Assembly (NCBI GenBank): GCA_033763455.1
Contig: JANRKO010000059.1
Location: 18,375 to 82,374, forward strand
Length of the DNA: 64,000 nucleotides
Direction: 5' to 3'
DNA from: Polyangiaceae bacterium
GTDB taxonomy: Bacteria; Myxococcota_A; Polyangia; Polyangiales; Polyangiaceae
Part shown: positions 31,533 through 55,390 of the stretch, piece by piece
Position numbering within the stretch: the first letter of the stretch is position 1
How the letters are laid out: each line of letters begins with the position of its first letter
The notes under the pieces: generated by a model
Databases searched by the model: none
Seen by the model: the letters and a program-made list of their open reading frames with translations, nothing else
What the model was told of the DNA's origin: nothing
Program-made: the position numbers and the translations under genes

Positions 31533-32251
31533 ATGATGAAGCTGAGCATTCCCCGCCGAGCACTCCTGCCGTTGGCTCTGTTCGTGAGCGCGTGCGCCCC
31601 CGGCGCTGGAACGCAGGCTCATGACATGAGCGCGGCCCGGCATTTGGCCGCAGCCAAGCAGGAGGATGACCTAGCGTCGCAGCACGCCCCCGGAGCCAGG
31701 GAGCCCCGCACTCGGTGCACTCCGAGCCAAGGCCGCGTGTGCTGGACTGGACGGACAGACACGCCTGACGGCCATCAGCACACCGCCGAGGAACATCTTG
31801 AACTGGCGGCTAAACACCGTGCGGCCTCGAAAGAGCTCATGGACGCTGAGGCACACGCGTGCGCTGGCCTGAGCGATGAAGATCGCGACACGAGCCCCTT
31901 CGCTCACAGCGCTGACATTGAGAGCGTGACCGAGCTTAGGGAAAATGCTCGGCCTGCTAGGGTGAACGTCGGGCGAGATGCTGCGACTCGACTCGCTGGA
32001 GCAACCATTGTGTTTCGCGCCTCACCAGGCCTGACCGTTGAGTGGCTGCAGCGCATTGTGGATTGCCATCTGGCGCGCAACGTGCGGTGGGCCACGATAT
32101 GCCTGAAATGGCCTATTGCCCCCTCGTTCCTCGCGGTGTTGCCGCCAAAGTTTACTCCGCTCGGCGTGGGTTTGCGGTCGACGTCCGCTCGGACGACCCA
32201 GAGATCGCTGCTGAGATCTGGAAACGTGCCCAACAAATTGGAGCAAAGTAA
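31533..32251 (+). pseudogene. His/Cys-rich lipoprotein family copy 1, frameshifted near 32082
   Basis: Paralog of 45003..45719; after DCHLARN the conserved AVGHDMPEMAYCPLVPRG...AEIWKRAQQ continues in another frame to 32251. Confidence 0.8.
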
Positions 32252-32432
32252 CGATGAGCTGTCCTAAGTGCGAGCCCTCGCCCAAGAGTCGCTGGTGGAA
32301 GTGGCCCGCAACCGCCGTCCTGTTAGCGGCAGCCTTGGCCTGGCTGGCAAGCTCTCAAACGCCGTCGCACAGTGTTGGAGAGCCGGCTTTGGGTAGCTCT
32401 GCAGAGTCAAAGTGAGCCTAAAAGGAGCTTGA

Positions 32433-33788
32433 GTGAAAATGGGAAACGACGGATTGAACCGACGAGAAGCTGTGTTCAAATGTGCCGCCATTGCGGGAGG
32501 TGCGGCACTGCTCGCCACCAGACCCGTGAAAGCCGCAACTGGCGACAGCACGCACTCTTGGGAAAAGAGCTACAGCGGTGGAACGCTCGCTGTGAAGGCG
32601 TTACCTCCAGGTGACCCTGGCCGCGACTACACACCCACGATCACCCCCGGAGGTGCTACTGCTGTTTGGAAAATCGTCGAGGGTGTCAAGGTATTCCATC
32701 TTATTGCCGAGGAGGTGTTGCACGAGTTTGCTCCCGGCCTGAAAGGGAAATGCTGGGGCTATAACGGGGGAGTGCATGGCCCGACGATCGAGGCGGTCGA
32801 AGGCGATCGTGTTCGCATCTACGTTACTAACAAGCTTCCCGCATCTACTACCGTGCACTGGCACGGAGTGTTTCTTCCAAATGGAATGGACGGCGTGGGA
32901 GGGCTGAACCAACGTGCTATCCAGCCTGGGGAAACGTTTATGTATGAGTGGACGTTCCGACAATCAGGAACCCTCATGTATCACTCACATCATGACGAGA
33001 TGACCCAAATGGCGATGGGAATGCTCGGAATGATCGTGGTGCATCCGCGGCGTCCTCCACCAGGTTATCGTGTAGATCGCGAATTTGTCATCATGTTGAG
33101 TGAGTGGAAAATCACACCGGGTACGCTGCGCCCGGATCCCAACGAGATGACCGATTTTAACGTGCTCACCATGAACGCCAAGGTGTTTCCGGCTACGCCG
33201 CCGCTGGTATGCAAAACGGGTGATCGAGTGCGCATTCGTTTCGGCAATTTGAGCGCCATGGATCACCACCCCATTCATCTGCACGGGCACTATTTCAAGG
33301 TAGTAGCGACTGATGGCGGCGCCATTCCCGCGGCCGGGCAATGGCCGGAAACCACCGTTTTGGTGCCGACTGGTAGTACGCGTGACATAGAGTTTGTCGC
33401 GGATGCGCCTGGCGACTGGGCGATGCACTGCCACATGACTCATCACGTGATGACTCAGATGGGGCACGGCATTCCGAACATGATCGGCGTGAACACGGAT
33501 AAGCTGGACGGACGTCTGAGCGCGCTCCTCCCAGGCTACATGAGCATGGGGCAATCCGGCATGGGTGACATGGGTGGGATGCAGATGCCAGTGCCGAAAA
33601 ATAGTATCCCGATGGTCGCCACACCCGGACCCCACGATGGCATCACCATGGGAGGCATGTTCACGCTCGTGAAGGTGCGCGACAATTTGAAAAGCTACGA
33701 CGATCCAGGTTGGTACCAAAATCCCCCAGGAACCATGGCGGATGTGGCCACCAAAGCCGCGCTTTTGCGTGATGGGATCAAAGTATGA
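32433..33788 (+). CDS. multicopper oxidase (copper resistance type), Tat signal
   Basis: NRREAVFK twin-arginine; HWHG, MYHSH, HPIHLHGH, HCHMTHH; Met-rich C-terminal region. Confidence 0.92.
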   Translation: MKMGNDGLNRREAVFKCAAIAGGAALLATRPVKAATGDSTHSWEKSYSGGTLAVKALPPGDPGRDYTPTITPGGATAVWKIVEGVKVFHLIAEEVLHEFAPGLKGKCWGYNGGVHGPTIEAVEGDRVRIYVTNKLPASTTVHWHGVFLPNGMDGVGGLNQRAIQPGETFMYEWTFRQSGTLMYHSHHDEMTQMAMGMLGMIVVHPRRPPPGYRVDREFVIMLSEWKITPGTLRPDPNEMTDFNVLTMNAKVFPATPPLVCKTGDRVRIRFGNLSAMDHHPIHLHGHYFKVVATDGGAIPAAGQWPETTVLVPTGSTRDIEFVADAPGDWAMHCHMTHHVMTQMGHGIPNMIGVNTDKLDGRLSALLPGYMSMGQSGMGDMGGMQMPVPKNSIPMVATPGPHDGITMGGMFTLVKVRDNLKSYDDPGWYQNPPGTMADVATKAALLRDGIKV

Positions 33789-35263
33789 AGGCAAGATCGC
33801 ATGGTTTGAATGGGGCGCGTGCAGGGCTTCGCGAGTTCCCGCGCTCCGCGCTTGGCGGAACCTTTGCGGCGGTGGCGCTTGTGGGGTTGCAGGCCTGCGT
33901 CCCGGCGAACGCTGGGTACGAAGATGTTCGGCAACTTACTTCGGCACGCATACATCAGGATGTGCGCTGGTATGAGCACGATTCGGCCAGCAACGTCGAT
34001 AAAGATACATCTGCCTTGATGCGGCGTCCCCTGAACGCGAACGCGGCGGTTCAAATCGCTCTGCTCAACAATCAGGGGTTGCAGGCTGCCTTCGAGGAGC
34101 TCGGAATTGCTCGAGCGGGCCTCGTGCACGCGCTGCGCCTTCCGAACCCAACGGTGGATGCTGCCCTGCGTTTCAAGGGTTCGAGCGAGCCAAACATCGA
34201 TGTGAACGCTCTGGAGGATCTCTCCGAGTTGCTCTACCTTCCGTTGCGCAACGGAGTAGCGAACGCTCAGCTTGAGGTGGCGAAGGCGAGTGTGGTCGGG
34301 CGTGTTTTAGACCATGCGTTCGAAGTGCGCTCAGCATTCTATGGCTATCAAGCGTCGGCCCAGATCTTCGAGCTCGCGCGCAGTGTGCTCGGGGCGGCGC
34401 AGGCTTCCTCCATCGCGAGCCAACAATTGCACGAAGCCGGCAATATCACTGATTTGGCTCTTGCCAGCGAACGCGCGCTCTACGAGGAATCGCGGCTTTC
34501 CTACATGCGCGCCGAAGCAAGCCTCCATGCGCAACGTGATGCGCTCAATGCTCTCATGGGCCTTTGGGGAAAGAACACAGGTTGGACCGCGGAAGCACGG
34601 CTACCTGAGCCAAGCGCAATCACCAGCGTGCTCGACAAGCTAGAGCAACGGGCGCTCGCCAATAGCTTAGATCTGCAGGTAATCAGGCATCGGGGTGACG
34701 CGGCCGCTAAGCGCGCGCATCTGGCGACCCTGCAAGGATGGCTTCCGGAACTCAAGGCAGGGGTGTCCGCGGAGCGGGATGAGCAGGGCGCATGGGGCGT
34801 TGGCCCCGCCGCAGCGATTGCAGTGCCGCTCTTCTATCAAGGGCAAGGCGAGTCGGGCGCGGCGCTGGCCGAAGCGCGCCAGCAGCAAAAGCTTTTTGCC
34901 GATACCGCCGTACAAATTCGCGCCGCTGCCAGAGCGGTCGCCACCGAGCTCGCCGCTGTCGCCAAAAGTGTTGGGTATGTCAAGTCCACCTTGCTGCCGT
35001 TGCGCGCTGAGATCGTAGACGGCACACAACTCCAATACAACGCAATGGGGGTCGGTGTTTCCCAGCTCATTCAAGCCAAGCGCGATCAAATCACTACGGC
35101 GCAGACCTATGTCACCCTCCTGCGAGACTATTGGACCTTGCGCGCCGAAGCCGAAGCGCTGGTGGCGGGGCGCCTGCCTAAGCGCGGCCTAACGTCGGAG
35201 GAAGCAACCCGTGACGCCGCCTCTTTCGAACAGGGGCGCACTGGCGGTCTCCGGCAGCATTAG
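33785..35263 (+). CDS. TolC-family outer membrane efflux lipoprotein
   Basis: Lipobox LQAC; AVQIALLNN.GLQA, two OEP-like helical repeats; coupled to the oxidase. Confidence 0.88.
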   Translation: MKARSHGLNGARAGLREFPRSALGGTFAAVALVGLQACVPANAGYEDVRQLTSARIHQDVRWYEHDSASNVDKDTSALMRRPLNANAAVQIALLNNQGLQAAFEELGIARAGLVHALRLPNPTVDAALRFKGSSEPNIDVNALEDLSELLYLPLRNGVANAQLEVAKASVVGRVLDHAFEVRSAFYGYQASAQIFELARSVLGAAQASSIASQQLHEAGNITDLALASERALYEESRLSYMRAEASLHAQRDALNALMGLWGKNTGWTAEARLPEPSAITSVLDKLEQRALANSLDLQVIRHRGDAAAKRAHLATLQGWLPELKAGVSAERDEQGAWGVGPAAAIAVPLFYQGQGESGAALAEARQQQKLFADTAVQIRAAARAVATELAAVAKSVGYVKSTLLPLRAEIVDGTQLQYNAMGVGVSQLIQAKRDQITTAQTYVTLLRDYWTLRAEAEALVAGRLPKRGLTSEEATRDAASFEQGRTGGLRQH

Positions 35264-35320: not shown

Positions 35321-35779
35321 ATGAACGCATTTCAAGTCACGATCTTGGGTGCCCTAGCAGGTACGGTAGTGGGCTGCGCTGGCGCGTCGGGGCAGAGCTC
35401 GGCCCCGAGCGTCACGAATCCTCCCTCGGAAAAACCCGACCACGAGGCTCAGCACGCGGGATCTCACCACGCAGAGCGCGCTGTTTCCTCTTCGGAACGC
35501 GCCGCGTACGAGAAGGCAAAACCCATTTTTGATCGCTACTGCTCCAGCTGCCACACCACCGCAGGAAGCCGATCGCAAGGTGGCGCTCTTCAGCATTTCG
35601 ACATGGACCACTACCCGTTTGGCGGGCACCACGCCAACGAGATAGCTGCAGCCGTGCGTGGAGTCTTGGGTGCGGATGGCAGCAAACCGAGCATGCCCCC
35701 GGATCGGCCAGGAGCCGTGGAAGGCGAGGATTTAAAGTTGATCCTTGCCTGGGCGAGTCAGGTGGGCGCCAGCCACTAA
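35321..35779 (+). CDS. monoheme cytochrome c lipoprotein
   Basis: Lipobox VVGC; CSSCH heme motif; distal MPP; His-rich linker. Confidence 0.8.
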
Positions 35780-37835: not shown

Positions 37836-37905
37836 GCGCCGCCGTGACGCCGCGTTGGCTCCCGCGATTCGGCGGCGTACGGGGCCGTCAAACTCCGCGC
37901 GAAGC

Positions 37906-39102
37906 ATGACCCTTCTCGTTCGCTCTCGTGAATGCCACGCTGTCGGCCAACAGCCGTTCGAAGTCGTCGAGCGCAAAGGTATCGGCCACCCGGACACCAT
38001 CTGCGACGCCGTTGCAGAGCACATTTCCCAGCAGCTCTGCCGCTATTACCTACAGCACTTCGATCACGTCCTGCATCACAACGTCGACAAGGTGTTGCTG
38101 TGTGGCGGAGCTGCTCGCCCGACATTCGGCGGGGGCGAAGTGCTCGCCCGGATCGAGATTTACTTGGCAGGGCTTGCCACGACGCAGGTGGGCGACAAGA
38201 GCATTCCCGTCGCCGAGATCGCAATCGAGGCCTGTCGCGAATGGTTGCAGGAGAATCTGTCCGAGCTCGACGTCGCGCAGCAGGTTCGGATCCATTCCAA
38301 GTTGCGGCCGGGCTCCCACGGCCTAACGGAGCTCTTCCTGCGCGGCTCGAGCCTGCCGCTCGCGAACGACACGTCGTGTGGCGTCGGCTTTGCACCCCTG
38401 ACTGATCTCGAAAGCCTGGTGCTTGCGGTCGAACGGCGACTGAACGAGCCCGCGTTGAAGCGCCTGCATCCGGAGCTTGGCTCGGATGTGAAGGTGATGG
38501 GCGTACGTCGCAGTGACGACATCGAGCTCACTGTCGCGTGCGCGATCGTGTCGCGTCATGTGCCCGATTTAGCTGCGTATTTGGCAGCCAAGGACTTGGT
38601 CGTCCAGCTCGTCCTCGCGACGGCTGCCCAGACCACCAAGCTCCACGTCAGCGTGATCGTCAACGCCGAAGACGTGCCCGAGCGCGGCGAGCTCTTCCTT
38701 ACGGTTACAGGGACCTCGGCCGAAGCAGGCGACGATGGCGAGGTCGGGCGCGGCAACCGCGCCAATGGGCTCATCACTCCGTATCGCCCCATGACGCTCG
38801 AGGCTGCGGCTGGCAAGAACCCGGTCAATCACGTCCGGAAGCTTTACAACCTGGCGGCAGGTCGAATGGCGGAAGCGCTCGTGGAACTTCTGCCTCAGGT
38901 TCAAGACGCCAGCTGCGTGCTCGTGAGTCGGATTGGCGAGCGCATCGACGAGCCTCAGGCCACCGACATCGAGCTTGGACTCGACGACCCTTCCCAAGCC
39001 GAATCGCTCACTCCCCGCGTCATCGAAATAGCGCGATCCGTGCTCCAAAATCTACCACGTCTCCAGCGCGGGTTGCTGGAGGGCACCGTGACCGTCTTCT
39101 AG
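37906..39102 (+). CDS. archaeal-type S-adenosylmethionine synthetase (methionine adenosyltransferase)
   Basis: [55 protein letters not shown]. Confidence 0.9.
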
Positions 39103-39439
39103 CGAAGCGGTGCACCCGAGCTTGGACAAACCGGCGCCTTCAGGGTGGCTGGCAACCTTGCGCAGAAATCACGCAACGGTCCCTCCTCCCTGCAAGAACT
39201 GCGTGGTTACGATTGCAGAGTATTCATGTCACGCACTATGTCGGCGCGGCCTAGATAGGTTGCAATGCTGTTCGATTCCCATGCCGCGAGTTTCATTGCT
39301 GCCGCTGGGGCAAAGCACGTGGGTGGGCGAGGTAACGCCGTGTTGTCCGCCGGTAGAGCTACGGGTCAACCGTGCTCAGTTGAGGCATTTTGCCACGCGA
39401 CAGAGCACCAAGTGGCATCTTGGGCACGACAGATGCGTA

Positions 39440-39484
39440 TGGCACAACACGTGCTTAACCACATTCTATACCCCCTGGGGGCAT
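39440..39484 (+). promoter_or_regulatory. sigma54 promoter followed by CsoR-type operator
   Basis: TGGCACAACACGTGCT (39440-39455) and ATACCCCCTGGGGGCAT (39468-39484). Confidence 0.7.
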
Positions 39485-39566
39485 GGGTCATGCCTCGATG
39501 AACTTGAAGAGTTCGATGATGATGCCCAACTGCCAACACCCAAATAGTGAATGGAGACCTTCCGAA

Positions 39567-40617: not shown

Positions 40618-40748
40618 TTGGCGCTGACAGCAAGCAGTCACCGGGGGGGGACTCCGATTTGACCATGTGGGGCAGCCCGGGCTCGTCAACAATGGTTAGA
40701 GCGCTCGGGCTACGGCATGCAGCGACATGATAATATGAAAGGAAGGGA

Positions 40749-41513
40749 ATGAACATGATTCGCTCAATCTGGTACACATCAACTCTCAGTTTGCTCGCAG
40801 CGGCATGCGCATCGACTCCGGGCGCAAAACCGCACGACATGAGCGACGCGCAGCACGAGCGAGAAAGCCAATCGCAAGGCGCCACGGCGGACGCTCACGC
40901 AGCCCAGTACGACTCGAATGCGAGGGTCGAGCGCTGGCGGTGCTCGCCCAGGGGAGGCGGGCGCGCCGGTGCAGAGTTCGGCGGATGTTGGAGCTCCGTC
41001 TTGAACCCAACGACGGCGCATCTCCACGCCGCCGAGGATCACCGGCGGCAGGCGGCAGATCATCGTGCGGCCTCTGCTGCCCTCCGCGGCGCTGAAGCTC
41101 GAAGCTGTGTCGGCATCAGTTCCGACGACCGGGACATGAGCCCGTTCGAGCACGTGGAGGACATCACAAGCGTGGAGCCGTTGATAGACCGCAACGGCAG
41201 CAGCGTGGCACCCTCCCTGCGGACGGTCGGAGCAATCGTCACGTTCCGCGCGGTTCCCGGCATGACGTCGAAGTGGTTGCAACGCGTGATGGACTGCCAC
41301 CTTGCCCGCAATGCCTCGCTTGGTCATACGGTGCCCGAGATGCCGAACTGTCCGCTCGTCCTGAAAGGAGCCCAAGCGCGCGTGACTGCAACAGGCAACG
41401 GATTCGCGGTAGCGATTCGTTCCGACGACCCTGCTACGGCGCGCGAGATCCTGTCGCGTGCAGAGCGACTTCACGCCGCAACCGTTAACTCCGCGGCATC
41501 AACAACTAGGTGA
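40749..41513 (+). CDS. His/Cys-rich lipoprotein family copy 2
   Basis: RBS AAGGAAGG; lipobox AAAC; HDMS..QH, DRDMSPF, WLQRVMDCHLARN, GHTVPEMPNCPLV. Confidence 0.85.
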   Translation: MNMIRSIWYTSTLSLLAAACASTPGAKPHDMSDAQHERESQSQGATADAHAAQYDSNARVERWRCSPRGGGRAGAEFGGCWSSVLNPTTAHLHAAEDHRRQAADHRAASAALRGAEARSCVGISSDDRDMSPFEHVEDITSVEPLIDRNGSSVAPSLRTVGAIVTFRAVPGMTSKWLQRVMDCHLARNASLGHTVPEMPNCPLVLKGAQARVTATGNGFAVAIRSDDPATAREILSRAERLHAATVNSAASTTR

Positions 41514-41604
41514 GCACAGGACCCAAGGTCTGGACGGATTGCGCGAACGCCTTGCTGAGTATGCTCAAATGGGCGCTCGGATGCAATTGCGGAAAGCACT
41601 TGCG

Positions 41605-42072
41605 TCAGTGGCTGCCGCCGGCTCCAGCGCCACCAGTTCCGGCACCGCCGGTTCCCGATGCCGCCGCCAACGCGAATGTGACTACGTTGGAGTAGTTGTT
41701 ATGTTCTGCGGCTTCTTTGCCCATGGCCATCACTCGGTAGGCGTAGGTAACTCCGGCCGTTAGCGGCGCATCGTGGTACTGAACCGTGTTAAAGGGAAGC
41801 GTACTGACCACGGCAAATTCTGCGGCACCTGCTTTACGTTCGAGCATGAACTGCGATTCGTTGTCCGAATTGTCTTTCCAGGTTAGGTGAGCTCCGCCCC
41901 CAAGCTCCATCGCGGACAGTTCGCTTGGGGCGTTGGGCATCATGTTGTTAGACATGTCCATGCCGCAGGCTACGGTAATGAATGCAGCTGCCGACGTAAA
42001 CGTGAGTTTGGTGAGGTTGGTGTGCACAGGTCGCATGTTTTGGTTCCTTGTTGGCTTGATGAATGTTCTCAT
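41605..42072 (-). CDS. fibronectin type III lipoprotein with Met-rich N-terminus
   Basis: TVAC lipobox, MDMSNNMM, PNAPSEL...LTWKDNSDNE...YAYRVMA. Confidence 0.7.
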   Translation of the reverse strand: MRTFIKPTRNQNMRPVHTNLTKLTFTSAAAFITVACGMDMSNNMMPNAPSELSAMELGGGAHLTWKDNSDNESQFMLERKAGAAEFAVVSTLPFNTVQYHDAPLTAGVTYAYRVMAMGKEAAEHNNYSNVVTFALAAASGTGGAGTGGAGAGGSH

Positions 42073-43508
42073 TGAGTTAGCCGCAGTTCGCCCATCATTC
42101 CACGCTCGGCGTGCTCAAGGATGTGACAGTGGTACATCCATGTCCCTGGTGTGCCGTAGCGAACGGCGAACCGCACGGTGCTTTTTTGTGGGACATTTAC
42201 CGTGTCTTTCCAGCCTACGTGGGCGGGGGGCACGCCATCGACATCCAGAACCTTGAAGAACATCCCGTGCAGATGAAAAGGGTGGTCCATTTCGGTGTCG
42301 CTCTTAACGCTCCAGATCTCAATGGCACCTTCTTTGGCATCAATGGGAGGCACGGCTGGAAACTGTTGTTTATTGATGAAAAATTTTGGCTCCTGCCCCG
42401 GTTCCTTAGGTTCCTCCTCCTGCAGCACCAACTCCCGCAGAGGAGCGTCGAGCGGTACTTCAAGGTCAACGGTGCGACCCCAAATGCTAGGCAGCGGTGG
42501 CGGTGTGGGTGCCGCAGCCTCAAATCTTAGACTGAGCAAACTGAGGGGTCCGGGGTCGGCTATGGCGTGACCTCTGTCGTAATGGATTGTCTCCAGCGCC
42601 AATGTGGTGCCCGCCGGGCCTGTTGGCGTCACGAGGACCTCGTAGCGCTCGCCCGGCGCAATCAACAATGTATCTGCTTCATAGGGCTGCGGCAAAAGGC
42701 CGCCGTCCCATCCGATCACCGTGAATCGCTGCCCCGGCAACCTAAGATTGAAATACCGTCCGTTGGCTGCATTCACGAAGCGCCAACGTTCACGCGCCCC
42801 GCTTCTAACCTCTATCTGAGAACCTACTTTGCCGTTGACCAGCAATGTATTGCCCTGCCGCCCCAACATCCAGTCGAGAGCCTCGACGCGGGTTGAAAGG
42901 TTTCCGGTTGACTCAAGCTTTACGTCGTCAAGCACGAACGCCCGGTCGTTCGACACGACAATGTTATCCTCTTCCTTGACGACCAACATGCCGTAGAGGC
43001 CACGTTCCAGCTGGACGTCAGCGTGCACATGCGGATGGTACCAAAACGTTCCGGCGTCATTCGCCGTGAACTCGTAGTTGAATGTCTCCCCCGGTGCGAC
43101 TTCCCTTTGCGTCGAGGGGGTGCCGTCGGCAACGTTAGGAACACGAAGACCGTGCCAGTGGACGGTCGTCGCTTCTGGCAGGTCGTTCCGAAAATGGACG
43201 ATCACTCGGTCGCCCTTATTCGCCAGGATGAGAGGCCCCGGCACTGACGCTTGGCTTCCATCTTTCGAGCTATCCCGATAACCCCAGATGTCAGCAGGGC
43301 CGGCACTCAGGTAACGAGTGGTGCCAGTTGCCGCCACCAGGTTAATTTCTACAACATTTTCAAGGGGATTGACGTCAATTATTGGTGACACCGCAGTTGG
43401 TTCGCCGCCACTCGCGGGCTCGCCTGAGCAAGCGACCGCCCCCAACGCAATGAAGGCGAAAGCCAGGCGCTTGAACGACCGCAGAAGCAAGAACATGGGC
43501 GAACTCAT
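42069..43508 (-). CDS. multicopper oxidase (laccase/CueO-like) lipoprotein
   Basis: Lipobox AVAC; HWHG, WYHPH, HPFHLHG, HCHILEH...M. Confidence 0.92.
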   Translation of the reverse strand: MSSPMFLLLRSFKRLAFAFIALGAVACSGEPASGGEPTAVSPIIDVNPLENVVEINLVAATGTTRYLSAGPADIWGYRDSSKDGSQASVPGPLILANKGDRVIVHFRNDLPEATTVHWHGLRVPNVADGTPSTQREVAPGETFNYEFTANDAGTFWYHPHVHADVQLERGLYGMLVVKEEDNIVVSNDRAFVLDDVKLESTGNLSTRVEALDWMLGRQGNTLLVNGKVGSQIEVRSGARERWRFVNAANGRYFNLRLPGQRFTVIGWDGGLLPQPYEADTLLIAPGERYEVLVTPTGPAGTTLALETIHYDRGHAIADPGPLSLLSLRFEAAAPTPPPLPSIWGRTVDLEVPLDAPLRELVLQEEEPKEPGQEPKFFINKQQFPAVPPIDAKEGAIEIWSVKSDTEMDHPFHLHGMFFKVLDVDGVPPAHVGWKDTVNVPQKSTVRFAVRYGTPGTWMYHCHILEHAERGMMGELRLTQ

Positions 43509-44551: not shown

Positions 44552-44596
44552 CGGCATGGTCCTTGCTCTCGAGCACAGCATACCCCCAGGGGGCAT
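44552..44596 (+). promoter_or_regulatory. sigma54 promoter followed by CsoR-type operator
   Basis: CGGCATGGTCCTTGCT (44552-44567) and ATACCCCCAGGGGGCAT (44580-44596), directly upstream of csoR. Confidence 0.75.
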
Positions 44597-44618: not shown

Positions 44619-44915
44619 ATGATGAATGAAAACACGAAAAACAAAGTCCTAGCCCGCCTTCACCGAATCTCAGGCCAGGTAGAGGGCATTGCGCGCATGG
44701 TCGAAGGGGACCGTTATTGCGTCGATCTACTGCTCCAGATCGCCTCTGCCCAAGCGGCACTCAGCGAAGCGGGCAAGCTAATCCTACGGTCGCACGTGGA
44801 AATCTGCGTTTCCAATGTTCTTTCATCCGGCAAGCCAGCCGAGAGGAAGCAGAAAATAGACGAACTCATGCAGGTCTTTGCGCGCTACGGCTGCCTGGGG
44901 GCACGCGCAAAGTAG
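44619..44915 (+). CDS. csoR: CsoR-family copper-sensing repressor
   Basis: RLHRISGQVEGIARMVE.DRYC...HVEIC; C-H-C ligand fingerprint. Confidence 0.9.
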   Translation: MMNENTKNKVLARLHRISGQVEGIARMVEGDRYCVDLLLQIASAQAALSEAGKLILRSHVEICVSNVLSSGKPAERKQKIDELMQVFARYGCLGARAK

Positions 44916-45002: not shown

Positions 45003-45719
45003 ATGAAACTTTCACTCTCGCGCTTAGTTCTACTTCCCCTAACCCTGGCTGCTGGAGCCTGCGCGCACTCCGCGGGGACCGCTCCGCATGAGATGAGCGC
45101 GGCGGAACACCAGGCTGCCGCCCAGAACGAAGACCAACAAGCGGGAGGGCACGAAGCGCAGTATGACGCGAACGCACGGCAGTCTACCGTCTCATGCAAA
45201 CCGAGCAGGGGTCGCGTCTGCTGGACGGCATGGGAGAACCCGACCAAGGAGCATAATGTTTCGGCGGCAGAGCATCACGAGCTCGCGGCCAAGCACCGCG
45301 CGGCCTCCAAAGAACTCGCTGATGCTGAGGCCCGTGAATGCGCCGGTCTGAGCGACGAAGATCGCGATGTCAGCCCATTTGCCCGCGGGGCTGATATCTC
45401 AAGCGTTGCACAACTCAAGGAGGACAAGCGTGTCGGCAAAGCTTCGGTGTCGCGCGAAGCCGGGGCGACGATCGTCTTTCGCGCGGCGCCAGGGCTGACC
45501 GCAGAGTGGCTACAGCGCATCGTTGATTGCCACCTCGCCCGAAACTCTGCGGTCGGGCACGACATGCCAGAGATGTCCTATTGCCCACTCGTCCCACGCG
45601 GAGCGCAGGCGAAAGTGCACTCGTCCGGTGATGGCTTTGCCGTGGATGTTCGTTCTGACGACGCGGAGACTGCCGCTGAGATATGGAAGCGGGCGCAGCA
45701 GCTCAGCATCAAGCCTTGA
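45003..45719 (+). CDS. His/Cys-rich lipoprotein family copy 3
   Basis: RBS AAGGA; lipobox AGAC; lies between csoR and the tolC-cusB-cusA genes. Confidence 0.85.
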   Translation: MKLSLSRLVLLPLTLAAGACAHSAGTAPHEMSAAEHQAAAQNEDQQAGGHEAQYDANARQSTVSCKPSRGRVCWTAWENPTKEHNVSAAEHHELAAKHRAASKELADAEARECAGLSDEDRDVSPFARGADISSVAQLKEDKRVGKASVSREAGATIVFRAAPGLTAEWLQRIVDCHLARNSAVGHDMPEMSYCPLVPRGAQAKVHSSGDGFAVDVRSDDAETAAEIWKRAQQLSIKP

Positions 45720-45721
45720 GC

Positions 45722-47014
45722 ATGAAGTCGAAAAGAGCTGCCGTTGTCATTGCCTGGTGCGCGGCAATTTGTTTAGTCCAGAGCATATCCCTGCAGGCCG
45801 AGGCCCAAGCGCGCAAGGGCTCAGAAGCAACGCTCGCTCTTCCAGAGCCCCTCCACATTCAGCAAGTCCTAGAGCTGGCACGCTCGCGACGCGCCGAAGT
45901 TGTGGCCGCTCGGGAACGTGCACGCGCGGCTTCTGAGCGGCCCGCCATCGTGGCTGCATTGGAAGAGCCCGTGGTTTCGGCGTCCGTGGATCACCTCCCG
46001 TTCATGCTCAACGGGGCCGACGTTAGCCTCACCGTCGAACAGCGGTTCCCGCTTTCGAAGGTTCGCGGAAACCTGCGGCGTGCGGCGGAGGCCGAAGCCA
46101 CGCGACTTCGCTCCGACACGAATCGGGTGGGGCTCGACGTTGAGTGGGAAGCAGCAAGCTCCTTTTTGATGCTGCACGAGCGGCGGCAAACAGCCAATAT
46201 TTTGATAGAACAGCTGGGTCTCGCCCAGGAGTTGGTGGGCGCAACCACTGCGCGCTACGCAAGCGGCAACGGTCTGCAAGCGGACGTCCTTCGGGCGGAG
46301 CTTGAAGTCGCTCGCCTGGAGGCTGCGCAGCTCTCGCAAAAATCCGAAATTCGTGGAGCTGAGGCCATGCTGAATGCAAGCCTTGCGCGCGACACGCGGG
46401 CACCTATCCCCGAGCTTGCCAGCGCAGCTATCACAACAGAACCACCGGAGTTCGTAGCAGCACGCGATGCGGCGCTTGGAAACCGCCCAGAGGTCGCCTC
46501 CGGGCGTGCCGAGATCACAAAGGCCCAAGCGGACGTGTCGGTGATGAATTCCATGTATTCGCCGATGGCGATGCTGCGCACCGGCCCTTCGTACACGATG
46601 AACGATGGGCCAGGCTGGATGCTGATGGTCGGCGTGAGCGTCCCGATTTGGCGTGAGCGTCTGAGCTCCGGTGTGCGCGAGGCTGAGGCCATGCTGGGCA
46701 TGTCGCGGGCCGATCTGAGTGCCATGAAGCGTATGATAGAGGGTGAGGTTGCCAATTCTCGCTACCAATTGCTCTCCGTGCGGGATCGCTATCTTGCACT
46801 CCGGGATCAACTTCGCCCGCGCGCCAAGCGCATGGTCGAAACCGCCCTCACCAGTTACTCAACTGGCACTCTGCCGCTCGTGAGTGTGATCGAGGCGGTC
46901 CAGACCACGTGGTCCGTCGAGACGGACTTAGTCAGCGCGGAGTTTGAGCTTGGGCTTGCCTGGGCGCGTTTTCAGCGGGCTATTGCGGCTCGCACTTGGG
47001 GTAAACATGAGTGA
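45722..47014 (+). CDS. TolC/CusC-like outer membrane efflux protein
   Basis: Signal peptide, OEP repeats (ARYASG...DVLRAELE; VSVPIW). Confidence 0.85.
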   Translation: MKSKRAAVVIAWCAAICLVQSISLQAEAQARKGSEATLALPEPLHIQQVLELARSRRAEVVAARERARAASERPAIVAALEEPVVSASVDHLPFMLNGADVSLTVEQRFPLSKVRGNLRRAAEAEATRLRSDTNRVGLDVEWEAASSFLMLHERRQTANILIEQLGLAQELVGATTARYASGNGLQADVLRAELEVARLEAAQLSQKSEIRGAEAMLNASLARDTRAPIPELASAAITTEPPEFVAARDAALGNRPEVASGRAEITKAQADVSVMNSMYSPMAMLRTGPSYTMNDGPGWMLMVGVSVPIWRERLSSGVREAEAMLGMSRADLSAMKRMIEGEVANSRYQLLSVRDRYLALRDQLRPRAKRMVETALTSYSTGTLPLVSVIEAVQTTWSVETDLVSAEFELGLAWARFQRAIAARTWGKHE

Positions 47015-48368
47015 TCCAAAAACGGAAATAGACGGCGGGCAGGCGGAGGTCGGGCCCGAAGGCAAGAGCAAGCACGAGTGGCGGACCTTCACGACGGGTG
47101 CCGGCTTGATGCTGGTTCTCTTCGGTGGCCTTGTCCTTGTTCAGCATCTGCGCCACGGTTGGCCCTTTTCACTGCACCATGGGATAGTCAGCTCACAGTC
47201 TGCGCCTGCCCCCAAAGCGCTGCCCGCCAGCGAGGATGCAAAGGCCAACGTCCGCGCTCCAGTTGAACTCGAGCCTTCTCGGCTCTCGGCTCTCGGCATT
47301 CGCGTGGAACGTGTTCGCCCCGAAATTATCGCACGCCCGCTCCGCACCGTAGCCTCGGTGGCACCCGACGAATCTCGGCTATCGCACGTGCACACTCGGG
47401 TTTCTGGCTGGATCGAGGAGCTCGGTATCAACACCACCGGGCAGTCGGTGCGCGCTGGGCAGGCGCTTGCCGGAATCTTCTCCCAAGAGCTGCTCTCCTC
47501 TCAGACGGAGTACTTGGCGGCGCGTCGAGCCTCAGAAAAGGGGCCCGTAAGTGCTGTTGCAGAAGGGGCTCGCTCGCGCCTGAAGGTGCTTGGCATGACC
47601 GACGCGGAAGTGAGCGCGATTGAACGCTCTGGCCAGCCTCGGCGGCTCGTCACGGTGACCGCACCAAGGAGTGGCGTGGTTATCCACAAGGGGATCACGG
47701 TGGGCACTGCCGTGGATCCGTCGACAGAACTTGTGGTGATCGCGGATCTATCGACGGTTTGGATCTTGGCGGAAGTTCCCGAGTCCGACATTCCCAATGT
47801 AGAGCGCGCCACACCTGTAAGTTTGCAATTCCCAGGTTCCGGCTTGGTGCCATTTGAAGCACCCGTGGACTTCTTGTACCCCACGCTGTCAGAACGCACG
47901 CGCACGTTGCGGGTGCGGATAATCGCCGAGAACCCAACCGGAGCCCTGCGCCCCGGCCTCTACGGAACTGCTGAATTTCGGGTGCGCCCGCGTTCAGCGC
48001 TCACCATTTCACGTGACGCAGTGGTGGATACCGGAGCCTCGCAGCACGTCTTCTTGGTCGAAGGCGAGGGCCGCTTTGTCCCCAAGCCCGTCAAACTCGG
48101 TGCGCGCTTTGATGATCGGGTGGAAGTACTCGAAGGGCTTCATGAAGGCGACGCCATCGTGGCATCTGGTGTGTTTCTCATAGATTCGGAGAGCCGCTTG
48201 CGAGCCTCTGGTGGGGGTACGGGGCATGCGCATGGTGCGCCAGCCAAGGACTCCTCAGTACCCAACGGCGAACCTGCGCTAAAACACGAAGGCGGTTCTC
48301 ATTCGTCGGCGCCTCCACCTCCAAAAGAAGAGTCGCCGCCACACAGTGGACATGCGGTGATGCCGTGA
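47007..48368 (+). CDS. cusB: CusB-like RND membrane fusion protein
   Basis: VHTRVSGWIEEL, IADLSTVW, YPTLSERTRTLRVR, GVFLIDSES; His-rich C-tail. Confidence 0.88.
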   Translation: MSDPKTEIDGGQAEVGPEGKSKHEWRTFTTGAGLMLVLFGGLVLVQHLRHGWPFSLHHGIVSSQSAPAPKALPASEDAKANVRAPVELEPSRLSALGIRVERVRPEIIARPLRTVASVAPDESRLSHVHTRVSGWIEELGINTTGQSVRAGQALAGIFSQELLSSQTEYLAARRASEKGPVSAVAEGARSRLKVLGMTDAEVSAIERSGQPRRLVTVTAPRSGVVIHKGITVGTAVDPSTELVVIADLSTVWILAEVPESDIPNVERATPVSLQFPGSGLVPFEAPVDFLYPTLSERTRTLRVRIIAENPTGALRPGLYGTAEFRVRPRSALTISRDAVVDTGASQHVFLVEGEGRFVPKPVKLGARFDDRVEVLEGLHEGDAIVASGVFLIDSESRLRASGGGTGHAHGAPAKDSSVPNGEPALKHEGGSHSSAPPPPKEESPPHSGHAVMP

Positions 48369-51300
48369 TCGCTCGCATCATCGAATGGTCCGCCAAGCAC
48401 CATTGGATCGTATTTGGTGCCACGGGCCTTTTGATCGTGTGGGCTGTAATCGCAATGAAGCAGACCCCTTTGGACGCCCTGCCGGATCTGTCCGATCCCC
48501 AGGTGATCATCTTCAGCGATTGGATGGGGCGAAGCCCGGATCTCGTTGAAGATCAGGTGACCTACCCCTTGGTGCGCGCCCTCCAAAGTACTCCCAAGGC
48601 GCGGACGGTGCGTGGGTATTCCATGTTTGGGATGAGCTTTGTCTATGTCATCTTTCAAGATGACACCGACATCTACTGGGCGCGGACCCGCGTGCTGGAG
48701 CAACTCGGGCGGGTAAAGCAGATCTTGCCGCCAGATGTGGCGCCAGTGCTTGGCCCAGATGCGACGGGCGTTGGCTGGGTGTTTCAGTATGTCATCAACG
48801 ACAGCTCAAGGAAGCTCGATCTCGCACAACTTCGTGAGCTCCAAGACTTTACGATCCGCCCTGCATTGCAGGCGGTGTCGGGTGTCGCTGAGATCGCGAC
48901 GCTCGGCGGCTTCGAACGCCAATACCAAATCGTCTTGGATCCCAACCGGCTGGCGGCGTACGGCGTCACATTACCCGACGTGACGCGTGCTGTGCGCGAC
49001 GCCAACTCGGAAGTTGGCGCGCGTGTGCTCGAAATGGCTGGGCGCGAATACGTGCTGCGTGGACGCGGCTACGTAAAGACTCCTGCTGATCTCGAGACTA
49101 GCGTGGTGGCAGTGGGTGCCGGCGGAACACCGATCCGCGTCCGAGACGTCGCGCGCGTGCAGTTTGGGCCAGAAATTCGACGGGGTGCAGCGGATTGGAA
49201 CGGGAAGGGCGAGGCCGTAGGCGGCATCGTGGTGATGCGGGTGGGTTCCAATGCGCTCGAAGTGATCGAGTCCGTAAAGAAGGAAATCGGCAAGTTAAAC
49301 TTGCCCGATGGCGTGACGCTTGTCCCTACCTACGACCGCTCTGATTTGATCCGTGGTTCGATTGACACGCTGAAGACCACCCTGGTCGAAGAAGGCGTCA
49401 TCGTTGTTCTGATCTGTATCCTTTTTCTCTTCCACTTCCGTTCCGCACTGGTCGCGATGATCATTCTGCCGCTGGCGGCGCTGCTCTCCTTTATTGGGAT
49501 CCGCTACCTCGGGTTGACCTCAAACATCATGTCACTCGGAGGCATTGCAATTGCCGTCGGTGAACTCGGGGACGCCGCGATCGTTTTGGTGGAGAACGCA
49601 CATGTGCGTCTTTCCACCGCACCCCAGGGTTCGGACCGCAAACGCATCATCATTGATGCGTGCAAGGAAGTGGGGAGCCCTATCTTCTTTTCTCTGCTCC
49701 TCATTACCGTTAGCTTTCTTCCGATCTTCACGCTTGCTGGCCAAGCCGGGCGGCTTTTTCGGCCACTCGCCTTCACCAAGACGTTCGCGATGTTCGCAGC
49801 AGCTCTGCTTTCGATCACCCTGGCACCGCCGCTCATGGTGCTGTTGCTGCGGGGCCGCTTCCGTACCGAAGCCGAAAATCCGGTCAGTCGGGTGCTCGGG
49901 AAACTCTACCGTCCGATCGTGCGTCGGGTGGTTCGCGCTCGATTTCTCGTGGCAGCAGCGGCGATTGCGACGATAATCGCAACCGTTCCGATGTTTCTTC
50001 GGATCGGTTCCGAGTTCATGCCGCCCTTGGATGAGGGCTCACTCTTGGTGATGCCCACCACATTTGCTGGGATCTCGATCGAAGAGGCTCGAAGAGCGTT
50101 GGCTGTCCAACACCGTGCGATCATGAGTTTTCGTGAAGTTCAGTCGGTGCATGGCAAAGCTGGGCGCGCCGAAACTGCCACTGATCCGGCACAGCTCGAT
50201 ATGATCGAAAGTGTGGTGATGTTGCGTCCCAAGGAGCAATGGCCAAAACATTTCGAGAAGCAATGGTACAGTGGGGCACCCGCATGGGTGAAAGCTCCGT
50301 TCGAACTTGTGTGGCCTGAAGAACGCACGCGCACTCAAGAGGAGCTAGTGCGCGATCTAGACCACGCGTTGCGCATGCCTGGCTATCAGATGGCGATTTC
50401 GCCCCCCATTCGCACACGTATTGACATGCTCACCACAGGCGTCCGTACGCCTGTCGGCATCAAGGTATTTGGCCAAAATCTGGCGGAGATAGAGCAGCTT
50501 TCGATTTCGCTTGAAGGCCTTTTGCGCGAAGTTTCAGGCACTCGAAGTACCTTTGCCGAGCGCCAAACAGGGCGCGAGTACGTGGACGTGGTGCCCAATC
50601 GCGAGGTCATTGCGCGCTATGGCCTCAGCATGCGCGACGTGCACGACGTGCTCGAAGCAGCCGTGGGCGGCATGAGCGTTTCGACCGTCATTTCCGGACG
50701 TTCACGCTTCTCGGTGAACCTGAGATACGCCTCGGACTACCGCAATTCACCGGACAAGTTGCGCGACATTCTCGTGCCAGTTCCCACCACGGATTCGATC
50801 GCGGACATTGATCTCGGTGTCTCCGGCACCGGTGTGTCGGGCGCCATGGCTGCGTCTTCCGACAGCATGGCGTCCGGGCCAAAGAGCGGTTCCATGGGCA
50901 CGATGAACAGCGCGAGCGGTAGCAATTCAGCTCGCTCCAGCATGGGTGCTATGGGTTCCAGCGGGGGGGTATCCCCGCCGCGCATGGGAGCGGGCCCAAG
51001 TTCTCCACCCGACACGCAGGACCGCTGGCGCCAGCCTCTCGCTACCGTGCCCCTGGGCGCGCTTGCGGAAGTCAACGTACTTACGGGACCACCGATGATA
51101 AAAGACGAGAACGGCGTACTGGTCGGGTACGTCTTTGCAGATATCGACAGCTCCAACCGGGACCTCGGTGGCTGGGTGAAAGACGCGAAAGCGCTCGTCG
51201 CTAAGAAGCTGGTACTTCCGGGAGGTTCGCGCCTCGAATGGACTGGCCAGTATGAATTCATGGCCGAGATGGAGGCGCGCATGCGGTACGTGCTGCCGCT

Positions 51301-51823
51301 CACTTTAGTGCTCATTGTGGTGCTGCTTTACCTGTCGATGAAAGGCTGGGCCCAGACGCTCCTCGTGCTTGCCAGCCTCCCTTTCGCAGCCGCGGGGAGC
51401 ATCTGGCTCCTCGCCGCCATGGGTTACAACTTCTCAACTGCCGTCTGGGTGGGGCTGATCGCGGTGGCGGGGGTCGCGGCTGAGACGGGCATCGTTATGG
51501 TGGTGTACCTGGATGAGGCTTTCGAACGAGCTCTGGGAGAAGGTCGCATTCGAGAACCCAAGGACGTAGACGCGGTGATCGTAGAGGGTGCCACACGCAA
51601 CGCCCGCCCGCTCGTGATGACGGTTGCAACCACCGTGCTCGGCCTGATGCCCTTGCTGTTCGAAAGCGGAGTCGGCGCTGATGTGTCCGCACGCACCGCA
51701 GCTCCCGTGGTTGGTGGGCTCTGGTCGTGCATGTTTCTCACCCTTTTGGTAATACCGGCCGCATACTCGATCTGGCGCAGGAGCCAAATCCGTCGCGGAA
51801 CCTTCGCTGCAATCGACCTATAA
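48365..51823 (+). CDS. cusA: CusA-type heavy-metal efflux RND transporter
   Basis: LDALPDLSDPQV, GPDATGVGWV, GSEFMPPLDEG; Met triad equivalents LVMPT, LDMIE, IDMLT. Confidence 0.92.
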   Translation: MIARIIEWSAKHHWIVFGATGLLIVWAVIAMKQTPLDALPDLSDPQVIIFSDWMGRSPDLVEDQVTYPLVRALQSTPKARTVRGYSMFGMSFVYVIFQDDTDIYWARTRVLEQLGRVKQILPPDVAPVLGPDATGVGWVFQYVINDSSRKLDLAQLRELQDFTIRPALQAVSGVAEIATLGGFERQYQIVLDPNRLAAYGVTLPDVTRAVRDANSEVGARVLEMAGREYVLRGRGYVKTPADLETSVVAVGAGGTPIRVRDVARVQFGPEIRRGAADWNGKGEAVGGIVVMRVGSNALEVIESVKKEIGKLNLPDGVTLVPTYDRSDLIRGSIDTLKTTLVEEGVIVVLICILFLFHFRSALVAMIILPLAALLSFIGIRYLGLTSNIMSLGGIAIAVGELGDAAIVLVENAHVRLSTAPQGSDRKRIIIDACKEVGSPIFFSLLLITVSFLPIFTLAGQAGRLFRPLAFTKTFAMFAAALLSITLAPPLMVLLLRGRFRTEAENPVSRVLGKLYRPIVRRVVRARFLVAAAAIATIIATVPMFLRIGSEFMPPLDEGSLLVMPTTFAGISIEEARRALAVQHRAIMSFREVQSVHGKAGRAETATDPAQLDMIESVVMLRPKEQWPKHFEKQWYSGAPAWVKAPFELVWPEERTRTQEELVRDLDHALRMPGYQMAISPPIRTRIDMLTTGVRTPVGIKVFGQNLAEIEQLSISLEGLLREVSGTRSTFAERQTGREYVDVVPNREVIARYGLSMRDVHDVLEAAVGGMSVSTVISGRSRFSVNLRYASDYRNSPDKLRDILVPVPTTDSIADIDLGVSGTGVSGAMAASSDSMASGPKSGSMGTMNSASGSNSARSSMGAMGSSGGVSPPRMGAGPSSPPDTQDRWRQPLATVPLGALAEVNVLTGPPMIKDENGVLVGYVFADIDSSNRDLGGWVKDAKALVAKKLVLPGGSRLEWTGQYEFMAEMEARMRYVLPLTLVLIVVLLYLSMKGWAQTLLVLASLPFAAAGSIWLLAAMGYNFSTAVWVGLIAVAGVAAETGIVMVVYLDEAFERALGEGRIREPKDVDAVIVEGATRNARPLVMTVATTVLGLMPLLFESGVGADVSARTAAPVVGGLWSCMFLTLLVIPAAYSIWRRSQIRRGTFAAIDL

Positions 51824-53218: not shown

Positions 53219-54604
53219 CTAAGGCCTGAGCGCCCGAATCAGGGGAGCTTTTCCGAGCGGAGTTCTGGTGACCGCCGAGACGATTTCGACTTGCACGCGT
53301 GGTGGGTCCGCGCCCGCGTCTCGGAGAGCCTGCGTCACCGAAGCCACGAGTTCCTCTTCTTGAACGGGCTCTTTTGGGTTGCTGAGTAGGATGCGCACAA
53401 GGTTGAGCTCCTGGATAATCTGCCACTCTTGGACACGCAACGGCTCAAGCAGGCGATGAAATACGTTGGGGTGGATCACCACGTCGCTTCCCGCAACGGT
53501 GTGCATAACGAGCGAATCCTCCGCGCGCCCTTCGATGCCAGAAAGCAGTCTGAACGGTAGCCCGCAGTCACAGGTGTCCGTTGAGAGACTCACGCAATCG
53601 CTCATGGCGTAGCGTATGAGAGGCTGGGTGCGACTGAACAATACGGTAACGAGGATCTTGGCCCCGGGAGTACCCGGAGGTACCGGTCGGTCCTGTTCGT
53701 CCACCACCTCCGGAATCACTAGATCCTCGTAGAGATGCATCCGGTGGCGCCGGCAATCGGACGCGACCCCCGCGGTCTCAGTTGCCGCATAGACGTTGAA
53801 CGGCGAAGTGCCCCAGGCGTGCTCGATCCGTGCCGTGCCCTCCGGGGTGAGCACCTCGGACGAGCACATCACCGCACGGGGCGAAATCCGCAGGCGACCA
53901 GCGAGTTGCTCCTCGGCGAGCACGCGTGCCATGGACGCATACGCGACTAGATTCTCGGGCCGCCATTCGTTCAAGCCGGCCACAATTTCCGCCAGTGGTT
54001 GCGTCGCATCGAAGCGGTGGACGGGAATGAAGGGACTATCCACGCTCATCCCGACCCGAGATGACTGATGCCATGGCACACGCGAGCTCACGACAGCGAG
54101 CCGGGTCCTCTGCGTCAAACTTGCATGGATACCCGCCCATTCCTGTGCCCTCGCGTAGGACGCGATGACGGTGGCCCACTCACGACGATCCGCGAGGAAG
54201 ATGCCCGGGTGCCCCGTGCTGCCTGAGGTGCGGGAGACCCAGAATTTTCCTCGGAATCGATCGTTCGAGCGAAGTGTCTCCAGGTAGCGCTCAACGTCGT
54301 TGAGTCGAACTTCAGGGGAGGTTACCAGTTCGTTGAAGCTGGACATAAGCTCGGTTTTAGTGAGAATCGGTAACTCACCGAGCGGCTTTCCCTCCAGGCC
54401 GCGGTGAAACCGCCTGTAGAACGGGGAGCGTGCGTAAGCAAAGCGACGAAGGCGCTCCAACTGCCTGGCCTGAAACGCTTCAAGCTCACTCCGGGACCAG
54501 CGCTCGTGTGAGCGCAGCCGCCTTCGATTCCAAAGTACGCTGAGAATAAGCCGAGTGTCCACGGTTTCGAACGTTCTCGCGCCCGGCAAACTAGCCGAAA
54601 CCAA
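53219..54604 (-). CDS. phenylacetate-CoA ligase/CapK-like adenylate-forming enzyme
   Basis: LPILTK, TSGSTGHP, YAATETA, PLIRY, IEGRAED. Confidence 0.85.
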   Translation of the reverse strand: MVSASLPGARTFETVDTRLILSVLWNRRRLRSHERWSRSELEAFQARQLERLRRFAYARSPFYRRFHRGLEGKPLGELPILTKTELMSSFNELVTSPEVRLNDVERYLETLRSNDRFRGKFWVSRTSGSTGHPGIFLADRREWATVIASYARAQEWAGIHASLTQRTRLAVVSSRVPWHQSSRVGMSVDSPFIPVHRFDATQPLAEIVAGLNEWRPENLVAYASMARVLAEEQLAGRLRISPRAVMCSSEVLTPEGTARIEHAWGTSPFNVYAATETAGVASDCRRHRMHLYEDLVIPEVVDEQDRPVPPGTPGAKILVTVLFSRTQPLIRYAMSDCVSLSTDTCDCGLPFRLLSGIEGRAEDSLVMHTVAGSDVVIHPNVFHRLLEPLRVQEWQIIQELNLVRILLSNPKEPVQEEELVASVTQALRDAGADPPRVQVEIVSAVTRTPLGKAPLIRALRP

Positions 54605-54673
54605 ACCGAAACGGAAGATCGACGATCTGACGCGGGTCGTTTACGACGCCAGATCACCAAAAGGACACACCCG

Positions 54674-55390
54674 ATGAAACTCGCTATCTCGCACCTGATT
54701 CTACTTCCCCTAACCTTCGCTGCCGGGGCGTGTGCTCCCGCTGCGGGCACTCAAGCGCACGAAATGAGCGCCGCCGAACACCAAGCGGCAGCGAAGCAGG
54801 AAGAGAGCGATGCCGAAGCCCACGCGGCAAAATATCACCCTGAGGCCCCGGCCGTTGGGGCTGCGTGTAAGCCCAGCAGGGGGCGCGTCTGCTGGACGGA
54901 ATGGGAAAATCCGAGCAAAGAGCATCAAATTTCGGCCGCCGAGCATCACGACCTCGCGGCTAAGCATCGTGCAGCATCTAAAGAGCTCACGGAAGCCGAG
55001 GCCAGCGCATGCTCAGGTCTCAGTGACGAAGATCGGGATATTAGCCCCTTCGCCCACGGGGCTGATATTTCAAGTGTCACGCAACTCAAAGAGGAAAAGC
55101 GCGCCGGCAAAGCCACAACGACGCGCGACGCTGGTGCGACCGTTGTTTTTCGCGCGGCGCCAGGCTTAACCGCCGAATGGCTGCAGCGCATTGTGGATTG
55201 CCACTTGGCAAGAAACGCGGCTGTGGGACACAATATGCCACAGATGTCGTACTGCCCGTTGGTGCCACGCGGGGTGCAGGCGAAGGTGCACTCATCCGGC
55301 GGCGGCTTTGCCGTCGACATTCGTTCTGACGATCCAGAGACGGTCGCTGAGATATGGAAGCGAGCTCAACAACTAAAGATTAAGCCCTGA
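54674..55390 (+). CDS. His/Cys-rich lipoprotein family copy 4
   Basis: RBS AAGGA; 238 aa, collinear with and very similar to copy 3. Confidence 0.85.
   Translation: MKLAISHLILLPLTFAAGACAPAAGTQAHEMSAAEHQAAAKQEESDAEAHAAKYHPEAPAVGAACKPSRGRVCWTEWENPSKEHQISAAEHHDLAAKHRAASKELTEAEASACSGLSDEDRDISPFAHGADISSVTQLKEEKRAGKATTTRDAGATVVFRAAPGLTAEWLQRIVDCHLARNAAVGHNMPQMSYCPLVPRGVQAKVHSSGGGFAVDIRSDDPETVAEIWKRAQQLKIKP

Follow-up and report, generated by a model that had tools for sequence, protein, structure and literature searches.

Histidine-rich lipoproteins encoded beside copper genes in Myxococcota: candidates for periplasmic copper buffering

What might a lipoprotein that is encoded four times among the copper genes of a Polyangiaceae bacterium be doing? 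The question is raised by a 64,000-nucleotide stretch of contig JANRKO010000059.1 (positions 18,375 to 82,374, assembly GCA_033763455.1; hereafter, the window), in which four related open reading frames (ORFs), starting at 31533, 40749, 45003 and 54674 and numbered here copies 1 to 4, were originally predicted to encode membrane-tethered copper-binding proteins rich in His, Cys and Met. All four starts are confirmed, and every one of the shared motifs listed at the time is found in the copies, in copy 1 across two frames. We propose that these proteins are, on balance, probably lipid-anchored periplasmic buffers with multiple sites for Cu(I) or Ag(I), controlled by CsoR and encoded beside pumps and oxidases, with metal binding inferred from comparative patterns.

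As to the identity of the family, neither Pfam nor NCBIfam matches any of the four copies, Pfam returned single weak and unrelated matches in 3 of 126 members and otherwise none, and a profile search of the PDB produced three matches at E 0.14-1.8, none of them meaningful. A literature search aimed at the family found no description, most subscription papers being outside its scope. The family thus stands as unrecognized, as first stated, and no known non-metal family is matched by its homologs. From 2,761 candidates, 764 relatives were confirmed, all annotated at the source as ‘hypothetical protein’ bar one stray label, and a profile search gives 1,673 clusters at 50% identity, mostly from Myxococcota. 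In a sample of the phylum, with six candidates scored per genome, 62 of 401 genomes possess a match, 10 of them at E < 1e-50, the remainder including distant and short relatives. Two weak searches for longer fused forms found none, long members being mis-called starts. By the criterion of a signal peptide with a lipobox, these are bacterial lipoproteins with predicted lipidation: the lipobox Cys is at position 20 in 99% of the family alignment (A3), and 99 of 122 members satisfy a PROSITE-like rule. The description as His/Cys/Met-rich holds in part, as the mature copies 2 to 4 are about twofold above the window background in His (4.7-5.5% versus 2.2%) and Cys (2.1-2.3% versus 1.0%), but not enriched in Met (1.4-2.1% versus 1.9%).

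One line of evidence for a role in copper handling is the gene neighborhood, for which we have 79 loci, taken from the best 80 of 108 confirmed stretches, mostly in metagenome-assembled genomes of Myxococcota. In some high-GC loci the ORF caller chose the wrong strand, and therefore the linkage counts rest on tblastn. Copper-class genes are present in 57 of the 79 loci, and in 40 of the 48 loci of at least 12 kb, versus 8 of 344 tiles of the window's own genome outside the island that carries the four copies. When one long locus is taken per genome, 32 of 39 are positive versus the same 8 of 344 tiles (30 of 39 versus 5 of 344 for strict classes), so the linkage to metal genes on which the original prediction depended is far above background in close relatives. 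After removal of two duplicates, the nearest copper-module gene, outer-membrane factors (OMFs) counted, lies at most 1 kb away in 25 of 77 loci and at most 4 kb away in 48. Among ORFs of neighboring resistance-nodulation-division (RND) pumps, 26 of 31 possess the CusA Met triad, three are CzcA-like and two truncated, and 11 of 27 neighboring P-type ATPases carry the P1B motif CPC/CPD. The regulator gene csoR adjoins the family gene in 8 of the 9 loci that have it, and CsoR-like boxes are found directly upstream of the family gene in three loci (L011, L034, L074) and upstream of csoR in a fourth (L004).

A second line of evidence is presented by the histidines themselves. In the numbering of copy 3, His or Glu recurs every seven residues on both of two helices, and the presence of His covaries along the antiparallel diagonal, with odds ratios of 59 for positions 36 and 98, 20 for 43 and 91, and 13 for 50 and 84, while the six other combinations of 36/43/50 with 84/91/98 reach at most 7.4. 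By mutual information with average product correction, the same three pairs rank 12, 6 and 2, respectively. The set in question comprises 219 sequences under 70% identity; the pattern persists when the main clade (190 sequences) is taken by itself and when the identity limit is lowered to 60%, and the 43-91 pair is also seen in the distant clade. That a single register stands out in this way speaks for three physical cross-helix pairs, and supports H36-H98, E/H43-H91 and H50-H84 as ordered pairs, in keeping with the His part of the original prediction. Linear coordination by two His is a good match for Cu(I) and Ag(I), other metals being also possible.

The cysteines suggest a different role. 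Of 313 alignment rows, 242 have C65 together with C73 and 51 have neither, and C113 and C176 are both present in 307 of 315, being the sole Cys pair in the short relatives at L145 and L146 and in two ORFs of L129. In the distant clade, Cys124 occurs in 30 rows, all with C194, which carries little weight since C194 is near-universal; in the clade of the window, Ser124 accompanies C194 in 253 rows. C194 is kept in 206 of the 219 sequences, with Asp or Ser in some members, and the conserved H177 and M191 are near it in sequence. These patterns point to putative disulfides 65-73 and 113-176, and 124-194 where Cys124 is present, leaving C194 of the window clade as possibly a conserved unpaired thiol. 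A Cys-rich metal cage was considered and rejected, as the patterns of Cys gain and loss point to disulfides, and the earlier notion of Cys and Met as the main ligands is not supported, with four of the five Cys fitting disulfides and Met at background.

The structure predicted for copy 3 with AlphaFold2 from 120 sequences (mean predicted local distance difference test score, pLDDT, 89.5, with 177 of 238 residues at pLDDT of at least 90; predicted template modeling score 0.78) consists of a helical hairpin followed by a beta-beta-alpha repeat domain, laid out as helix 33-53, hairpin 60-78, helix 82-113, strands 132-144 and 147-159 and helix 167-183, then strands 202-208 and 211-217 and helix 221-231. 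The C-terminal domain modeled alone scores 95.1, and the prediction of a homodimer (0.01) has no weight either way. Foldseek found nothing at E 0.001 for the whole model or for the C-domain. With VIA-align, the best Z for the whole model is 8.3, to generic helical hairpins, and the best for the C-domain is 4.9, none reaching Z of at least 5 among 48,161 PDB chains, which does not by itself prove a new fold. A search of the Atlas retrieved unnamed Myxococcota clusters, and one cluster with 74% HMBD members aligned with the C-domain at a template modeling score of 0.57, below the acceptance threshold and a lead only. Separately, short lipoproteins in which two to four CP-beta-beta-alpha repeats are joined by Met/His linkers (L143:993-1604 and L149:7800-8753, both on the minus strand, and L147:4163-4591) are weakly related to the C-domain unit and have Cys at the CP positions only.

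How might such a buffer work? Judging by operon layout and operator, copper would relieve repression by CsoR, and the gene would be co-expressed with those for OMF, CusB and CusA. The protein would be exported and lipidated at Cys20, and its antiparallel helices would present the three ligand pairs, spaced seven residues apart, where several metal ions may be bound in His sites of low coordination; covariation demonstrates the pairing, and metal and binding are inferred from it. Disulfides C65-C73 and C113-C176 would stabilize the fold, as implied by their gain and loss, and the repeat domain might, more speculatively, add a site formed by H177, M191 and the unpaired C194. Free periplasmic copper would in this way be lowered while pumps and oxidases clear it. 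A buffering role fits the gene being optional, often multi-copy (several copies on one contig are common among the loci) and attached to varied copper modules.

A number of observations weigh against this proposal. In genomes sampled regardless of similarity (40 hand-picked regions from the 62 genomes with matches), linkage is found in 3 of 9 full-length main-clade, 14 of 26 distant-clade and 2 of 5 short-form loci, and housekeeping genes are neighbors at several of them (47 chosen ORFs); the linkage is thus strong in close relatives and weaker in distant sampled members. Ca/Mg-type P2 ATPases are encoded in 18 of the 79 loci, Usp, PPK2 and F390-like ligases are common neighbors, as in general stress islands, and the linkage background comes from a single genome. 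Kinship inflates the covariation p-values, and His pairs cannot discriminate copper from zinc or nickel. Finally, model residues 31-103 superpose on the metal-binding protein SmbP over 44 residues (root-mean-square deviation 0.7 A, Z 7.1), a result tied by unrelated helical hairpins.

The evidence needs to be weighed against three other explanations. One, which we regard as unlikely, is that the protein is a dedicated donor replacing CusF, from which Cu(I) would pass either to a CusB subtype that has no N-terminal Met site or directly to CusA. In its fuller form, equally doubtful, it is a membrane-tethered relay of unsolved fold, in which Cu(I) is collected by the three-rung His ladder and delivered, through a His/Met/free-Cys site of the beta-beta-alpha repeat domain, to a Cus pump whose CusB no longer has the N-terminal Met site, a CusF-free route to RND copper export across Myxococcota. 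CusF (PF11604) is indeed missing from the genome assembly, which is 93.7% complete, extending what was first said of the window. In E. coli CusB, the N-terminal M21, M36 and M38 are reported as the metal site used with CusF (PMC6235853), and an N-terminal Met/HMBD motif is lacking in the window CusB and in those of family-adjacent operons at fourteen loci (L001, L002, L023, L034, L039, L040, L048, L006 in its first operon, L009, L010, L011, L013, L014, L019). In a reverse test on loci with 3 kb upstream present, any family match was found in 9 of 23 loci of the window CusB subtype (three full-length), versus 0 of 12 of the HMBD type and 1 of 11 others, a contrast weakened by near-duplicates among the CusB loci and by HMBD loci coming from other taxa. 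The remaining 14 of 23 have no family match in the fetched flanks, and so an obligate pump subunit was rejected and an obligate replacement of CusF is not supported; the gene is a frequent accessory of the Cus pump, not a fixed subunit. It is found, moreover, beside operons with HMBD-type CusB (L045, L065, L066, L125), and beside P1B ATPases or oxidases with no pump. The CusB subtype deserves a remark of its own: it has a conserved periplasmic HGWPFS.HH immediately following the membrane anchor, and its tails carry GHAH/GH.GH (in the window protein, in L001, L002, L034, L039, L040 and L048, and in L150-L199), the former motif is seen in 39 of 80 metagenome loci, and this region may be an alternative site of metal entry.

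Another explanation, on which we place slightly less weight still, is a broad sink for Zn, Ni, Co or Cu(II), or else cargo that mobile islands carry for stress in general, the copper link being mainly hitch-hiking. The four copies do share an island that is integrated at a tRNA gene and mixed in its cargo, surroundings without copper genes are frequent among the sampled genomes, and the His-only pairs resemble those of SmbP, a reported binder of Ni, Cu, Zn and Fe (PMC7137794). Against it are insertion between csoR and pump genes in independent genomes, a copper-module gene at most 1 kb away in 25 of 77 loci, and Cu/Ag-type pumps in 26 of 29 readable cases. Least probable, and quite improbable to our mind, is a lipoprotein for sensing or thiol redox, in which the role of C194, or of a disulfide able to switch, would be to signal copper stress to a histidine kinase in the vicinity or to protect thiols of the envelope. 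The retention of C194, even as its likely partner position 124 is mostly Ser, is in keeping with this, as are the up to 14 loci with kinase-like ORFs and the 8 with sigma-54 regulators; but the island has no such kinase, C194 gives way to Asp or Ser in some members, as a turn-capping residue would, and the His ladder is left unexplained.

Turning to the locus itself, the four copies are enclosed in a 32-kb island integrated at a tRNA gene, along with two multicopper oxidases (MCOs), two OMFs, CsoR, CusB and a CusA-type pump (Table 1). The copy 1-MCO-OMF-cytochrome c and csoR-copy 3-OMF-cusB-cusA gene orders are both as originally described, the OMF start codon being 2 nt past the stop codon of copy 3. 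The pump scores 909 bits against E. coli CusA versus 433 against ZneA, and the small cytochrome c shares its Pfam family with the copper-induced MXAN_3414 (PMC3707914). The attachment of all copies to copper modules stands for copies 1 and 3, but copy 4, divergent from an F390/PaaK-like ligase and starting 2.85 kb past the end of cusA, has no adjacent copper gene. Copy 2 had been placed downstream of a CsoR box; the box exists, but about 1.27 kb away, copy 2 being the third ORF after it with two ORFs between. The near-identical boxes ATACCCCCWGGGGGCAT at 39468 and 44580 resemble the type-2 CsoR operator consensus ATATACCCCTNAGGGGTATAT (PMC3902906), and since a looser pattern gives 15 sites genome-wide, they are plausible candidate operators only. 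Scans of 39000-46000 for sigma-70 promoters and terminators were at chance level, and a plasmid search gave no match.

Table 1. Coordinates of the family copies and associated features in the window
Feature	Position	Strand	Remark
tRNA-Leu(GAG), left island boundary	28422..28506	+	
Tyrosine integrase	28449..29495	-	
Family copy 1	31533..32251	+	frameshifted near 32082-32083; called ORF continues off-frame to 32267
Multicopper oxidase downstream of copy 1	32433..33788	+	
Second outer-membrane factor	33785..35263	+	
Small cytochrome c	35321..35779	+	PF13442, below cut-off
Second, near-identical CsoR-like candidate operator	39468..39484	.	upstream of ORF preceding DUF2934-like ORF and copy 2
Family copy 2	40749..41513	+	254 aa, intact, separate subclade from other copies
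Second multicopper oxidase	42069..43508	-	then Met-rich lipoprotein 41605-42072; preceded by TRASH/YHS-like lipoprotein 43571-44047
CsoR type-2-like candidate operator ATACCCCCAGGGGGCAT	44580..44596	.	upstream of csoR and copy 3
CsoR-family repressor	44619..44915	+	Cys-His-Cys (RYC..H...C); top NCBIfam match RicR, below cut-off
Family copy 3	45003..45719	+	238 aa, intact, between csoR and OMF; residue-number reference
Outer-membrane factor, TolC/OEP family	45722..47014	+	
CusB-like adaptor	47007..48368	+	no N-terminal Met triad, no HMBD; H..HGWPFSLHH and His-rich C-tail
CusA-type RND pump	48365..51823	+	Met triad M563, M613, M688 retained
Family copy 4	54674..55390	+	238 aa, intact, 76% identity to copy 3
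Right island boundary	60500..60669	+	96% repeat of 28452-28621 (tRNA 3' half and integrase end)

Contrary to the original count of four working copies, copy 1 is broken, leaving three intact ones. A six-frame scan of the genome (6.56 Mb) with the family hidden Markov model matched the four window loci only, and in copy 1 model positions 1-181 and 182-235 fall in two frames. One base is lost, with DCHLARN in the first frame and CPLV and GFAV.VRSDD in the second, which continues as the expected family C-terminus to a stop at 32251. Five invariant Cys besides the lipid Cys had been claimed, but the called 244-aa ORF of copy 1 lacks the fifth because of the frameshift; as called, copy 1 is 37-53% identical in alignment to copies 2 to 4. 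A sequencing-run contig (X2) agrees over 32072-32293 with zero differences, extending only some 11 nt left of the break, too few to count as bridging it, and possibly sharing the source of the assembly, so the frameshift is either a real lesion or an assembly error. Among the sequencing runs listed, no RNA data sets carry the locus. Amplification within the island, also originally suggested, is not borne out. In a quick tree of 133 rows, copies 1, 3 and 4 group together (SH-like approximate likelihood ratio test 91) and copy 2 lies elsewhere, in another subclade, and a single clade of all four is rejected by the approximately unbiased test (p=1.7e-10, on a 45-row subset picked after the larger tree was seen), so local four-fold amplification was discarded. 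Even copies 3 and 4 differ in 85 of 182 codons for identical residues. The island has gathered old modules; it is not a case of recent amplification of one gene.

Several other features of the island were noted in passing. Relative to the E. coli protein, CusA contains some 80 inserted residues, rich in Met, Ser and Gly (residues ~810-895; window ~50790-51050). An archaeal-type S-adenosylmethionine synthetase is encoded at 37855-39102 (PF01941 and NF003366 above cut-off). The F390-synthetase/PaaK-like adenylate-forming enzyme (53219-54604) recurs near family and copper genes in L014, L044, L050, L052, L056 and L144, and the small Met-rich lipoprotein at 41605-42072, with no Pfam match, is paired with MCOs in several loci (L034, L058, L067, L071, L074). 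Directly behind a CsoR-like box lies 39483-40388, for a secreted protein with a His/Met-rich N-terminus and no Pfam match, possibly an outer-membrane barrel, with relatives in L005 and L057. Small DUF2934-like ORFs are found just upstream of copy 2 (40381-40617) and just downstream of copy 4 (55574-55984), and 57098-59551 encodes an ATP-grasp protein and, after it, an EamA transporter whose tail is long and His-rich. Other copper modules of the genome (contigs C16, C23, C45, C66 and C73, with P1B ATPases, MCO-OMF pairs and a YHS lipoprotein) include no family copy.

Few small families are known for periplasmic copper handling, CusF, CopM, SilE/PcoE and SmbP among them. To these would be added a large unnamed family with a predicted domain that lacks a match, tied to a CusB subtype in which the textbook metal site is missing. 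If Cu(I) binding is true, the family would represent a new kind of scaffold that binds metal at several sites, and would fill a gap in the envelope protection of myxobacteria, copper-sensitive soil predators. Given its recurrence among copper-export genes, its three paired His sites and its unmatched domain, it qualifies well as a candidate for envelope copper buffering of a new kind.

How does it compare with the known systems? CusF, a small beta-barrel, and SilF resemble copy 3 in being encoded by a small envelope gene of a cus operon, but the model of the family is a helical hairpin with an alpha/beta domain, PF11604 matches none of the four copies and none of the 126 members, and CusF is absent from the fold-search matches listed, which formally does not exclude likeness. 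The CusF ligands are given as Met47, Met49 and Trp44 (PMC6235853), and the acceptor site for CusF on CusB is missing in the operon of copy 3. SilE is reported to be a sponge for several ions that relies on His and is encoded together with a CBA pump (PMC5008109); it is, however, disordered without metal and carries His and Met motifs, while the family is predicted to be well folded over most of its length (177 of 238 residues at high pLDDT) and Met is not enriched. Synechocystis CopM is described as an envelope Cu(I) binder that is co-regulated with the RND pump CopBAC yet independent in action, an analogue of the proposed buffer beside a pump (PMC4335983), and in curA of Myxococcus xanthus a DUF305 lipoprotein, MXAN_3416, reportedly fills a comparable slot (PMC3707914). 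DUF305 (PF03713) is matched by none of the four copies or 126 members, is not found in the 93.7% complete genome, and differs in fold from the family as predicted. SmbP of Nitrosomonas europaea (PDB 3U8V), said to bind several metals (PMC7137794), is periplasmic with His residues on helices, as in the family model; it is a small soluble helical protein with no sequence or Pfam match to the family, whose members are lipoproteins with an additional alpha/beta domain and putative disulfides. By analogy, then, these proteins may be likened to SmbP, CopM and SilE in how they would work, while belonging with none of them.

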